A stretch of DNA of 64,000 bases, from NCBI GenBank assembly GCA_963693365.1, contig CAVNZM010000003.1, positions 13,796,914-13,860,913 on the forward strand, given 5' to 3'. The DNA comes from Amoebidium appalachense (Eukaryota; Protista; Ichthyosporea). The translations under genes and the position numbers were made by a program. Positions 8,174 to 47,556 of the stretch are shown here, piece after piece (the first letter of the stretch is position 1; the number at the start of each line of letters is the position of its first letter). The notes beneath the pieces are model-generated. The model did no database searches. It was not told where the DNA came from and saw only the letters and a program-made list of their open reading frames with translations.

Positions 8174-8877
8174 CTACGGCTCCCTTGAGTTGACCGGCCG
8201 GCGGAAGGATCTTGGCCGGTGACCAACTACGTCATATCCCTCCAGCGGATCGATTTCATTGGTTGCAGGCTCAATCGGTTCGATTTGATTGGCTTGTTGC
8301 CCAAACATCGGCGGTTGATTGGTTAGCAGCGGGCGCCCAACTACGTCATATCCCTCAAGGGGGTCGATTTCATTGGATGGAGTGCCAAATGGAGCGACTT
8401 GATTGGCTTGCGGTCCAAACACCGGTGTTTCATTGGCCGTTTGCATTTGATGCCGGTGTCCAACTATGTCGTAACCATGGAGAGGATTGACATCATTGGC
8501 GTCAGACACAATTACACAATTTTGATTGGCCGGCGCCGGCATGTGCCTGCTTCCTTGCGTCCCATTGGTCATGGCCTGCCGGTGACCAACCATGTCATAA
8601 CCGTCGAGAGGATCAAAAGAGTCGATTTCATAGGCATCGAGCCCAGACAAATGCATTTGATTGGTGGATTCCAATCTGTGCACCTGATTGACTATTGGCT
8701 GCCTGTGTCCGACAAGGTCATACCCTTCCAGGCGATCTATTTGATTGGTCGACGTCGCCAACGGTTGCGTCTGATTGGCCCAGAGACATGATTGGTTTTC
8801 GGCCGGGGTTTCTGGAATGCTGACGGTGCTCTCTTCGTTGATAACAGACAGACACTCCTCCCGTAGGATGGTGCGGC
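8174..8877 (-). CDS. RTK terminal exon: disordered tail with five GYD[LMIV]VG repeats
   Basis: Phase-1 acceptor tgacag|GC at 8877 matches the donor at 9517. Open to the stop at 8174. Repeats: [64 protein letters not shown]. Confidence 0.85.
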
Positions 8878-44800: not shown

Positions 44801-47556
44801 GGAGGGGGGGGGAGGGGGGAGGGGGGAGGGGGAGGGGGGGGGGGGGGGGCCAGGGGGGCAGCACAAAACGTCCAAAACGTACAGAAAACACAACAGCCAG
44901 AAATCAATCCTTGAGACAAAAAGAAGAAAGAAAGAAAGAAACGTGCAGGCAGAAGAGTCAGAAGGCACTTGAACAGACCCCATCATCAGGGGGGTTCCTA
45001 TGTATGCCTCGAAAAAAGAATGAGGTTCGACTCTTTCACATGAAAGGAAGGAGGGGGAGGGGGGGGGAGGGAGGGGGGAGAGGGAGGGGTATACATTCTA
45101 CAACAAAAGGTGTTGGGAACGGAGGGCGGGCGGGCCCGGGGAGGGCCGGGGGGGGGGGGGGGGGGGGTTGGAAACTGGGGGAAGGTCTTACCCGATTTGT
45201 ACCCAACCAAAGTTCAGCACCGGATGACATGGAGCCAATCAGGGGGATGGTTTCTGGGGTTAGGGTGACGGCTAGCTGGGCCCCATTTGATTGGCAGAAG
45301 GCTTGGATGGCTCCCCAACTACTAACCTGCATTGAATGCCGTATGATTATTGCTATTGTTGTTGTTATCATTTATCGTTAATATTGTTATTACTATTATT
45401 ATTATTATTATTATTACTATTATCAACAGCAGCAGCATCATAATCTTTGTGATTTAAGTTAACGTTATGAATGTTATTATTATCATCATTAATTTTATGA
45501 TCAAAATTTTAGTTATCGTTGTCGTTTTAGGTTTGTATCATTACTTATTGCGACAGCCAGAGGGCTCTATTCGTTCGGTAAAAGACCTAGACGGCAGTCT
45601 AACTACCACCCTGTATTAAGAAAAGAAAGAAGTAAAACAAGGAAAGAAAGAAGTAAAAGGAGATTGGTTTATACTTTATTTTGTCGTCGTTGTTATTTGT
45701 TTCTATTAAAAATATTATTATTATCACTAAGTTACGCATGTGATCGTTGTTGTTGTCGCTATTGTAATTATTGGTAGTAATTTTGGTGTGACGGAAACTC
45801 TTACCAGGACCTATCTACTTCAATGACTCTGCAACTACCACCCATGGATCGGAATAAAGTAGTTTAATTCTTTAAATTTAAATTTATTGTAGCATTAGTA
45901 TTGGCATTGATATTATACTAACACCTGTATCATTTCTATCAAAGTTGCTGTGGTGAACCAGTTGTTATTGTCATGATATGTTGTTTAATTGTGTGTGCGT
46001 GCGTGCATGTGTGCGTGCGTGCGTGTGTGCGTGCGTGCGTGGGTGGGTGTCTGTGTGTATGTGTGTCTGCACGCGTATGCGCACACTGTGTGTTTGTGGG
46101 GGGAGGAGGGGGGGGGGGGGGGAGGGGAAGTGTGTGTGTGTGTGTGTGTGTGTGTGTGTGTGTGCGCGCGCGCGGGCGCGGGCGTGCGCATGTGTGTGCA
46201 TTTATGTTTGTCTGTGTGCATTATGTTTGTCTGTGTGTGTTTTTTTTTGTGTGTGAAAGAGAGTGCATGCATGCGTGCCTAAGTGCCCATGCCACACGTG
46301 TGTGCCTGTGTTGTTCGAATCCTTTTGTCTCTCTCTCTCTCTCTCTGTGTGTGTGTGTAAGTGTGTATGTGTGTGTGTGTGTGTGTGTGTGTGTGTGTGT
46401 GTGTGTGTGTGTGTGTGTGTGTGTGTGTGTGTTTTCACTTCCATGCTTTTTGAGTGCCCATGCCACGCGCGTGTGCCTGTGTTGTTCGAATCTTTTTGTC
46501 TGTGTGTCTGTGTGTCTGTGTGTGTTCATTTCCATGCTTTTTGAGTCTGAACTTGTGTGCGCTTGCGCACAGCCAAGTGTCTTATATATATATCAGTCGT
46601 AGTTAACAGACTGCAAGAATAAGGTGTATGTTATGTACCTGCCCATCGTGCCTTTCAGTAACCCAAACAGCCATACATGCATTTTAAAAGTCATGTGTTG
46701 CATGCGATGGAAGGAAAGAAAGTTCGAACCAAGTACACGAGGCCTGGGCCGTGCACGAGGAAAAAGGGTGCACGCCGTGCTTTTCCTTCATAAAGACACA
46801 CACTAAAACTCACAGACACAACAACACGAGCGCATTAAACCAAGCACAACACAAACATACCTTGGGTACACGTACACGCAAGCAAGCATGTAAGCACACG
46901 CAAACGCGCACACACATTCACACACACACGAACGGACGCACACACGCACGTGCGCACACACGCGCACACGCACGCACGCACGGACGCACACCCGCACGCC
47001 ACCCACGAACGTACGCCATGCACACACGTAAGTAGGCACACATGCACATACGCACGCACGCACGCACGCACGCACGCACGCACGTACAAGCACACATGCG
47101 CTCACGCATGCACGCACGCAAGGACACGAATGCCCTCGGCGCACACCCACACCCAACCAACACCGAGAGGTAAAGAGAGGGAGAGAGGGAAGGTGAGCGA
47201 GGGGGGATCGCACACAAGCACGGAAGCACACACAAGCACACAGACCATACCTACCCCCCCCCCCCCCCCCTCTCGCCCCGCCCTCGCCACCTCCCTACTC
47301 CGTCCCCAATCTGAGTAGAGCCTGAACACGCCAGCCTGATGACAGTTCCAAACAGCGACATGGCAATTTTTCCATGCCTCTCTAAAGTCAAGCCAGCCCG
47401 AAAGCAAAAAAAAAAAAAAAAAAAGACACGTACCGTAGCGGTTACAGCAAAACATGCTTCTTCCGGGCCCAGTCTCCAGCCGGCAGGACATTGCAGCTGT
47501 GCGTTTGCTTGCGCCCAAACACAGGCAAATAACCACACCACCAAAGGCCACGACAT
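8174..47556 (-). CDS. Giant multi-exon receptor tyrosine kinase (SP-CTLD-22xTSP1-mucin stalk-Cys-rich repeats-SEA-TM-TyrK-Tyr-repeat tail), ~45 exons, ~2,900 aa
   Basis: ATG at 47556 begins [19 protein letters not shown] (signal peptide). Successive exons have GT/AG boundaries with compatible phases down to the stop at 8174. Kinase motifs [37 protein letters not shown] and CW..RPPF occur in order after a single TM helix. Junctions near 28.0-28.9 kb and 16.05-16.2 kb are ambiguous, so continuity of the whole ectodomain with the kinase is inferred from colinearity and from finding no intervening stop exon or new signal peptide. Confidence 0.85.
9517..15410 (-). CDS. RTK exons 37-44: protein tyrosine kinase domain and start of the C-terminal tail
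   Basis: Exons 15410-15285 ([12 protein letters not shown]), 14637-14537 (VAIKELK..LVAEA), 13769-13636 ([22 protein letters not shown]), 12862-12708 ([14 protein letters not shown]), 12046-11963 ([15 protein letters not shown]), 11355-11219 ([19 protein letters not shown]), 10673-10608 ([11 protein letters not shown]), 10054-9517 ([15 protein letters not shown]). All splice in frame. Confidence 0.95.
13728..14252. repeat. Degenerate tandem duplications (~115 bp unit) of the kinase exon-39 acceptor region
   Basis: TGATTCGCTGGAA(A/T)TC.TGC recurs at ~13763, ~13999 and ~14165, with a partial copy at ~13884. 14128-14172 copies the first ~40 nt of the exon with a 2-nt insertion. Confidence 0.75.
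16049..17231 (-). CDS. RTK exons 35-36: Thr-rich linker, transmembrane helix and juxtamembrane region
   Basis: Exon 17231-17152 splices in phase 0 to 16387: ..[26 protein letters not shown] followed by the stop-transfer cluster RRRK. The 3' end of the exon is ambiguous (about 16192 or 16049). Confidence 0.8.
17790..19050 (-). CDS. RTK exons 33-34: SEA-like domain with GSVV motif
   Basis: Exons 19050-18959 and 17970-17790 give [58 protein letters not shown]. The strand-helix pattern and RxGSVVxxF resemble SEA modules. Confidence 0.65.
19617..25219 (-). CDS. RTK exons 25-32: ~8 furin-like / TNFR-like cysteine-rich modules
   Basis: Phase 1-1 exons 25219-25049, 24443-24315, 23900-23784, 22480-22352, 21702-21571, 21020-20949, 20330-20217, 19730-19617. 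Examples: [53 protein letters not shown]. Confidence 0.82.
20345..20465. repeat. Intronic minisatellite, 3 copies of ACGTAAGTGGGTG.TATTTCTGGAAC
   Basis: Direct inspection; a fourth degenerate copy lies near 20562. Confidence 0.8.
23296..23622. repeat. Very long perfect (TG)n microsatellite, representative of dozens in the window
   Basis: More than 300 nt of uninterrupted TG. Comparable tracts at ~14984-15192, ~21154-21379 and ~52456-52695 (CA), with (GA)n at ~2372-2538 and ~57029-57236. Confidence 0.95.
25901..28067 (-). CDS. RTK exons 23-24: ~340 aa S/T/Q/P-rich mucin-like stalk followed by TSP1 repeats 21 and 22
   Basis: ORF 26675..28054 is rich in S/T/Q/P/A and ends in [23 protein letters not shown] at a GT donor (exon end 26905). 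Exon 26050-25901 reads [24 protein letters not shown]. The 5' acceptor of the stalk exon is uncertain. Confidence 0.8.
28969..43747 (-). CDS. RTK exons 4-22: 20 tandem thrombospondin type-1 (TSP1/TSR) repeats
   Basis: Exons 43747-43436 (2 TSR), 41762-41592, 41096-40932, 40391-40221, 39752-39579, 38950-38798, 38450-38268, 37738-37574, 36982-36824, 36449-36273, 35684-35514, 34968-34795, 34015-33848, 33210-33040, 32198-32037, 31656-31504, 30605-30456, 30040-29849, 29148-28969. Each reads close to WxxWxxWxxCSxTCGxGxxxRxRxC..C..C, has a length divisible by 3, and is phase 1-1. Confidence 0.92.
32218..32333. repeat. Degenerate ~31 bp minisatellite, ~4 copies
   Basis: Units such as CCAAACTCCAGGACATTTAGTCCG, CAAAACTCCAGAACATTTCGCTGG and CCGAAATTTAGGACATTTTG. 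Confidence 0.6.
33246..33562. repeat. ~92 bp tandem repeat (AGATAAGGAGTGTAGAATT.GGAAAA.TAAC plus poly-C/poly-A), 3-4 copies
   Basis: The core recurs at ~33246, ~33339, ~33429 and, degenerately, at ~33531. Confidence 0.7.
44300..44555. repeat. ~165 bp tandem duplication of the exon-3 3' end and its splice donor
   Basis: TCCATACATGT.TCCAC.G..GCTTGCTCACAGACCC..CCCTCAGTGTGGA at both 44341-44415 and 44506-44555. Confidence 0.8.
44513..47556 (-). CDS. RTK exons 1-3: signal peptide plus C-type lectin-like domain
   Basis: Exons 47556-47434, 45326-45192 and 44642-44513 join in frame: ..[77 protein letters not shown]. This matches the CTLD pattern CPxGW..C(Y/F)..W..A..C...GA.L..WLG..C..C...VCE. Confidence 0.85.

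Follow-up and report, generated by a model that had tools for sequence, protein, structure and literature searches.

What kind of receptor would place a tyrosine kinase behind a long array of thrombospondin type 1 (TSP1) repeats, and do the two belong to a single gene? The question is raised by a 64,000-nucleotide stretch of the ichthyosporean Amoebidium appalachense (GenBank assembly GCA_963693365.1, contig CAVNZM010000003.1, positions 13,796,914 to 13,860,913 of the forward strand; referred to below as the window), a microsatellite-rich eukaryotic sequence. Strand reading combined with a splice-site listing yielded a minus-strand gene of 45 exons, extending from an ATG at 47556 to a stop codon at 8174. 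All 44 introns are of the GT-AG type and measure 347-2107 nucleotides (nt), and the joined exons form an open frame of 2,798 amino acids (aa) whose sole stop is the terminal one. The order of domains is as follows: a likely signal peptide, a lectin-like domain, 20 TSP1 repeats, an S/T/P stalk, two further TSP1 repeats and eight Cys-rich exons, and then a SEA-like module, a transmembrane (TM) segment, the tyrosine kinase and a tail with five tyrosine repeats. The corresponding features are:

47434..47556, minus strand: exon 1, with the start codon, a likely signal peptide (hydrophobic N-terminus, hydropathy window mean 1.22) and the start of the lectin-like domain
44513..45326 (45326-45192 and 44642-44513), minus strand: exons 2-3, remainder of the compact C-type-lectin-like domain (Lectin_C and PDB matches)
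28969..43747, minus strand: exons 4-22, TSP1 repeats 1-20, two in exon 4 and one in each exon after it (Pfam TSP_1)
26905..27846, minus strand: exon 23, stalk of about 268 aa rich in S, T, P and A, and TSP1 repeat 21 (composition, spliced contigs)
25901..26050, minus strand: exon 24, TSP1 repeat 22 (TSP_1, 28 bits; loose end in run X14)
19617..25219, minus strand: exons 25-32, eight Cys-rich exons, TNFR/furin-like, all of phase 1-1 (Pfam, BLASTP)
17790..19050 (19050-18959 and 17970-17790), minus strand: exons 33-34, membrane-proximal SEA-like module with GSVVL (profile, fold of a relative)
16192..17231, minus strand: exons 35-36, T-rich linker (17231-17164), then the TM helix followed by RRRK (16387-16192) (hydropathy)
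16049..16150, minus strand: possible extra juxtamembrane segment (open second frame, GT donor)
9517..15410, minus strand: exons 37-44, tyrosine kinase (aa 2142-2415) and start of the tail (motifs, Pfam, tree)
8174..8877, minus strand: exon 45, tail with five GYD[LMIV]VG repeats and the stop codon (repeat search)

Evidence for a single spliced gene

The exon chain was compared, over the region 26860-33690, with contigs from four coded runs (X9, X10, X11 and X14) representing at most three samples and two studies. The contigs are spliced, since introns are skipped exactly at GT-AG boundaries. All four runs, from both studies, pass directly from TSP20 (28969) to the stalk (27846), skipping the intron; therefore the TSP1 array is not a separate gene ending near 28 kb, an outcome that an earlier sequence-only reading of this DNA had named as fatal to its claim of one gene. 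That claim is upheld by this joint together with the open 2,798-aa frame. The TSP15-TSP16 joint was found in three of the four runs, and TSP15 to TSP20 all lie on one spliced contig. In run X14, a 30-letter loose end at 26905 is identical to the opening letters of the TSP22 exon, giving the stalk-TSP22 joint in one run. Two X9 contigs extend further, by an argument from length only: one runs from TSP20 to TSP15 and has 1,351 further letters, against 1,350 nt modelled for the exons TSP14 to TSP7, and another has 2,078 letters beyond 26905, against 1,665 nt modelled from TSP22 through the TM exon, and would, if colinear, reach the kinase. The locus is a real, spliced gene that very probably encodes a single surface receptor tyrosine kinase (RTK) of about 2,800 residues with 22 TSP1 repeats. 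A pseudogene is ruled out by the open frame and the spliced contigs, and two genes divided at about 28 kb by the spliced contigs. A joint in the contigs that appears to go back 61 letters was read as one TSP1 exon resembling another.

Two stretches of the model admit alternative forms. At the stalk, the acceptor at 27846 is used in four of four runs and a second, in-frame acceptor at 27489 in three of four; the latter removes 119 aa and leaves an open frame of 2,679 aa. At the 3' end of the TM exon there are two candidates, 16192 or the same with an added segment, 16150-16049. The added segment is open in a second frame and ends at a GT donor, and the frame stays open with it (2,832 aa); its inclusion would presuppose either an intron of 41 nt or an assembly error of one base. 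It was homologous-looking by eye and failed the profile test against shuffles: the juxtamembrane profile gave 10.4 bits with the segment versus 10.7 for the short model, and 434 of 1000 shuffles scored as high.

Further observations concern the same region. An unspliced X9 contig (27841-28335; depth 4.3) lengthens the stalk exon upstream, where the frame is open for about 90 codons above 27846 with more in-phase AG dinucleotides; this may reflect a retained intron or a third stalk form of greater length. The segments 27756-27810 and 27846-27900 are 84% alike. Between 26966 and 33098, run X11 shows 17 single-letter differences from the window, 16 of them exonic (7 synonymous, 9 not; 11 in the stalk exon), so that X11 represents another strain or allele with the same spliced gene.

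Kinase clade and the 2014 catalogue

In a Pfam scan run exon by exon on the 45 pieces, PK_Tyr_Ser-Thr matched five of the eight kinase exons, three of them above cut-off. All catalytic motifs are intact, including the Gly loop, the catalytic loop HRDLAARN and the activation-loop YY. The TM helix is the protein's highest hydropathy window (2.66, the next being 1.35) and is the only TM segment, located on the N-terminal side of the kinase. A search with one kinase exon covered 1.84 billion representatives, and the best 150 of its 352 matches were re-ranked by local BLASTP with the whole kinase; the 13 best of these are named proteins from Creolimax, Amoebidium, Ichthyophonus and Sphaeroforma, 36-48% identical. 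A tree was built with 42 rows taken from 269 fetched proteins: 17 ichthyosporean, 12 animal, 2 named choanoflagellate, 3 outgroup, 7 unnamed and the window. In this tree, which samples part of the animal families and has no filasterean, Corallochytrium or RTKB2 row, the window kinase falls inside the ichthyosporean RTK clade (support 98/94), without a close sister and outside the 12 animal kinases. An animal RTK (Met, Ror, Eph and others) was rejected on the ground that the kinase lies outside the animal rows. The tree, a kinase-domain phylogeny having been proposed as a check by the sequence-only reading, agrees with the single ichthyosporean RTK cluster of Suga et al. 2014 (PMC4342544). Judged from its sequence, the gene would encode a single-pass RTK of the ichthyosporean clade, and its catalytic motifs, clade and TM position fit the ichthyosporean group A RTKs of Suga et al. 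2014. The contigs, Pfam scan, tree and motifs together bear out the proposal of a lineage-specific unicellular-holozoan RTK whose ectodomain is long and rod-like and whose tail carries tyrosine repeats. In the region 13726-14214, the intron before one of the kinase exons holds two partial copies of that exon's start, at 14126-14214 (85%) and 13873-13963 (76%).

The closest comparison is with Ichthyophonus P0016 and Creolimax P0097, P0170 and P0172, whose kinases are 45-48% identical to that of the window and carry the same insert before DFG. TNFR repeats occur in P0016, a lectin domain in P0170 and the SEA-like module in all four. The difference lies in the TSP1 repeats: the TSP1 pattern was found in none of the 269 fetched proteins searched, and Pfam TSP_1 in none of the 120 listed. 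Single-exon searches among longer proteins returned no match, a weak result because they covered proteins of up to 2,000 aa and failed to recover relatives already known. BAI adhesion G-protein-coupled receptors, semaphorin-5, hemicentin and SCO-spondin carry TSP1 repeats in tandem with a similar pattern; to our knowledge, none of the animal proteins with TSP1 arrays has a tyrosine kinase.

A receptor of this composition had very likely been recorded before. Suga et al. 2014 (PMC4342544) list CLECT, TNFR and TSP1 among the domains of ichthyosporean kinases. The label text of their Fig. S8 contains two rows with TSP1, one reading 4 TNFR, 2 TSP1 and TyrKc and the other 4 TNFR, TyrKc and 22 TSP1, while that of Fig. 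S9, limited to Creolimax and Sphaeroforma, contains no TSP1 label. Two Amoebidium-only families with two members belong to the Fig. S8 page: IchRTK10, said to be without a signal peptide, and IchRTK18. The architecture was very likely catalogued in this supplementary figure. The "undescribed family" of the sequence-only reading must therefore be given up, as the same architecture, 22 TSP1 repeats with 4 TNFR and TyrKc, beside a two-TSP1 sister in the ichthyosporean cluster, had probably been described there. Given that the count of 22 TSP1 repeats is exactly the same in both, the window gene is in good probability the published receptor or its orthologue. The two also share TNFR-like Cys repeats and a tyrosine kinase of the ichthyosporean cluster. 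They differ in that, as far as label text goes, CLECT is absent from the page labels, and the legend lists neither SEA nor a stalk nor tail repeats. The published row has four TNFR; the window gene has eight Cys-rich exons, on one of which TNFR_c6 is below cut-off and which are similar to the TNFR repeats of P0016. The published receptor is known from RNA-seq and hence lacks exon structure, and its likeness to the window gene is one of domain labels, not of sequence. In the available main text of PMC4342544, IchRTK18 is not named and TSP1 appears in a legend only. A search of the literature on TSP1-bearing RTKs, outside which most subscription papers lie, found PMC4342544 as the only relevant paper and no follow-up; PMC8662651 does not mention thrombospondin, TSP, ichthyospore, Sphaeroforma or lectin.

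What the ectodomain may sense

Pfam TSP_1 scored above cut-off on all 19 of exons 4-22 and on all 21 TSP-bearing exons overall; exon 4 contains in addition a degenerate repeat, alignable with the rest, which brings the total to 22. The sequence-only reading had the count right and the order wrong, placing the stalk after all 22 repeats and not between the twentieth and the twenty-first. Pairwise identity among the repeats has a median of 37% and a maximum of 52%. They contain 37 WxxW and 15 CxxS/TC motifs, retain the Trp and Arg faces, and gave weak matches to spondin, ADAMTS and SEMA5B-like TSP1 models in the Pfam scan. The stalk consists of S (15%), P (15%), A (13%) and T (13%) to a large part. 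The eight Cys-rich exons hold 48 Cys in 326 aa; TNFR_c6 scored 24.3 bits on one (cut-off 29.4) and Furin-like_2 15.8 on another, three of the eight were without a Pfam match, and BLASTP in a local set aligned these exons with the TNFR repeats of P0016 (E 2e-9). At the other end of the protein, the tail repeats begin at aa 2611, 2652, 2694, 2735 and 2773, about 40 aa apart. The tail exon had no Pfam match and no BLASTP match among 150 fetched proteins.

These features suggest a contact receptor in which a rod binds a surface or a cell, the receptors cluster and autophosphorylate, and SH2 proteins dock at the tail; the odds for this reading are put at slightly better than even (about 0.55). With each TSP1 repeat taken as about 5 nm and each glycosylated residue of the stalk as about 0.25 nm, the rod made by the ectodomain would reach up to about 200 nm, and the 119-aa stalk option could tune this reach. 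Binding to a surface or to another cell would occur through the Trp/Arg faces of the TSP1 rod and not by calcium-dependent sugar binding at the tip. Contact would cluster the rods and bring the kinases together, upon which the activation-loop YY and then the five tail tyrosines would become autophosphorylated; the five tail repeats would then dock SH2 proteins in a multivalent manner, as in Monosiga RTKB2. In the step held least certain, the SEA-like module may self-cleave and serve as a break point under pull.

The repeated tail motifs of Monosiga RTKB2 are phosphorylated by the receptor and bind the Src SH2 domain (PMC3584944). This Monosiga brevicollis protein resembles the window gene product as a unicellular RTK with a Cys-rich ectodomain and repeated tail tyrosine motifs, autophosphorylated and SH2-binding in RTKB2; it differs in that its RM2 repeats are about 80 aa long, number six and, in the available text, are reported only from Monosiga, against five repeats about 40 aa apart here. 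Ichthyosporeans have 22-56 SH2 domains (PMC4342544, Table 1), and the same paper speculates that their repeat-rich RTKs sense the environment or the host. Crawling amoebae occur in Amoebidium and Creolimax (PMC11286789).

Several points weigh against the account given here of one spliced gene, equivalent to the published receptor and acting by contact. The kinds of the four runs are guesses ("RNA?" for X9 and X14, "DNA?" for X10 and X11), none being recorded as RNA and none having a separate DNA control. The joints read as letters span TSP15 to TSP22, and those from exon 1 to TSP14 and from TSP22 to the kinase lie outside. The 22-TSP1 row of Fig. S8 is likely to be family IchRTK18 by elimination, the label text not tying rows to names. 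The published kinase alignment is scrambled as text, and the five peptide searches made in it, with no matches, are uninformative. Among the best 150 of the 352 kinase matches, which include three EukProt Amoebidium kinases, no named protein matches the window kinase, the top identity being 48%. Finally, the likeness between the tail and the RM2 repeats is one of description, not of alignment.

Another reading turns on the membrane-proximal module. No Pfam SEA match was found on the two exons that split it, nor a PDB sequence match for the SEA-like exon. A profile of eight modules from four related RTKs (four picked by eye, four more obtained via the profile) gave the window 14.3 bits, compared with at most 6.2 in 500 shuffles, and this was the sole match in the 2,798-aa model. 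A Creolimax copy of the module is predicted to fold as beta-alpha-beta-beta-alpha-beta (pLDDT 79). Its best structural match is the IA-2 ectodomain (Foldseek E 0.02, probability 0.97); it also aligns with a nuclear-pore chain (Nup54; Z 8.4, root-mean-square deviation 2.8, 80 residues aligned), the membrane-adjacent domains of cadherin-23 and protocadherin-15, Trop2 and the MUC16 SEA domain. The matches in IA-2, Nup54, cadherin-23, protocadherin-15 and Trop2 are presumably divergent SEA domains. Atlas clusters gave TRADD-N-like at 0.90 for the window exon and SEA at 0.80 for the relative's module. The SEA-like assignment is thus moderately supported: the domain named by the sequence-only reading is backed by the profile and by the predicted fold of a relative, and not by Pfam. 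A putative module of this kind, to go by sequence comparison, is common to several RTKs of ichthyosporeans, and the available text of the 2014 domain key (PMC4342544) does not list it. P0097, P0170, P0172 and P0016 have two SEA-like copies each, of which the membrane-proximal one keeps GSV and the distal one is without it.

It is conceivable, if unlikely, that the receptor is gated by force: the module would self-cleave at G/SVVL during maturation, leaving the rod held non-covalently, and a pull on the rod or on a spanned cell wall would release it and switch the kinase. GSVVL agrees at four of five positions with the G/S[V/I]VV-type autoproteolysis motif of SEA domains (PMC8011033), the last being L and not V, and SEA domains have been proposed as break points under pull (PMC8011033, PMC10556640). 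G-S-V is invariant in five aligned modules, but these five were chosen for carrying GSV, and another four copies in the relatives are without it. The predicted fold, with IA-2 and the nuclear-pore chain as its top matches, speaks for such a role; yet it is that of the Creolimax module, whereas a model of the window's own 60-aa half-module matched no fold clearly (best Z 4.1), and RRM and other ferredoxin-like folds come within 1-2 Z of the SEA domains. Moreover, cleavage does not imply signalling. A long repeat stalk, an S/T-rich region and a membrane-proximal SEA domain with a G/SVVV-type motif are also found in choanoflagellate Sema-FN1 (PMC8011033) and in animal transmembrane mucins; Sema-FN1 differs in having FNIII instead of TSP1 repeats and in that no kinase domain is reported for it in the available part of PMC8011033.

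Quite unlikely is a glycan-sensing receptor, as the sequence-only reading had envisaged, in which the N-terminal lectin would bind sugars of a host or of prey, with the TSP1 array as a mere spacer. The tip is indeed C-type-lectin-like: Lectin_C scored 21.7 bits (cut-off 22.6) on exon 2, one of the domain's three exons, and the PDB matches at E<=10, weak as they are, were all six to C-type-lectin-domain proteins (best E 0.019). EPN/QPD and WND are the usual calcium/sugar motifs of C-type lectins. No EPN, QPD or WND occurs in aa 20-129 of the model and the loop is shortened; because of this, calcium-dependent sugar binding by the tip domain appears doubtful and the case for glycan recognition weak. 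The nearest solved relatives include CLEC5A, CLEC2D and CD69, which we take to be largely calcium-independent or protein-binding. A spacer role also sits poorly with the preserved Trp/Arg faces of the TSP1 repeats, though these faces stabilise the fold as well. Other ichthyosporean RTKs have a lectin domain (P0170; legend in PMC4342544), in favour of glycan sensing. In the intron after the third lectin exon, a broken copy of that exon's end, donor included, was seen by eye (44340-44420).

Two neighbouring genes seeming one, the first for a TSP1/mucin protein that is secreted or anchored and the second for a shorter, Cys-rich RTK, are very improbable: the TSP22-kinase joints lie outside those read directly and the published set holds a shorter RTK with two TSP1 repeats (PMC4342544), but the TSP20-stalk and stalk-TSP22 joints are seen, neither a further signal peptide nor a further TM segment occurs in the exon chain, a contig continues for 2,078 letters from 26905, and an RNA-seq-derived kinase with 22 TSP1 repeats has been published (PMC4342544).

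Intron phase and exon shuffling

Between the point where the lectin domain ends and the last Cys-rich exon, 30 consecutive introns are in phase 1 and bound 29 exons; 6 of the other 14 introns are also in phase 1. Exons 4-22 are all of class 1-1, and 19 exons contain exactly one TSP1 repeat. Exon shuffling of class 1-1 modules is diagnosed, following Patthy, by exons that match domains and by flanking introns that share a phase (PMC8001218, section 2.3.1), and class 1-1 genes are held to be practically restricted to animals (PMC8001218). The TSP1 exons of the window gene, with their phase-1 introns, show this pattern. The repeats are not independent events: most of the run is accounted for by a single 1-1 exon copied in tandem, and a process acting genome-wide cannot be read from one gene. 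A literature search listed no paper dealing with 1-1 modules in ichthyosporeans. That the 1-1 bias extends genome-wide across several module types in the ichthyosporean lineage is a tentative proposition, somewhat short of even odds. It is improbable that ichthyosporean receptors were built by animal-style class 1-1 shuffling and that, in addition, this gene encodes a force-gated RTK whose SEA-like module would cut itself and free a 200-nm TSP1 tether under pull.

The remainder of the window contains other putative genes on the minus strand. Upstream, at 50842-62084, two small multi-exon genes that are related to each other lie in tandem, each beginning with a hydrophobic segment; matching exons are 60570-60628 and 53248-53306 (85%), and 57743-57906 and 50842-50996 (77%). 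Three segments of the pair were tested, with no Pfam match. Downstream of the kinase gene, a stop-to-stop frame of 268 codons (4187-4990) had no Pfam match. An open frame at the window end (63410-64000) is E/L/K-rich and coiled-coil-like, with only sub-cut-off Pfam matches.

The exon structure of this receptor, invisible to RNA-seq, thus displays in a non-animal the pattern by which exon shuffling is diagnosed. Ichthyophonids underwent their own wave of intron gain (PMC5560861), and exon shuffling is therefore testable genome-wide. The five-repeat tail, which parallels the RM2 tail of Monosiga, would provide a convenient starting point for the biochemistry of pre-animal phosphotyrosine signalling.

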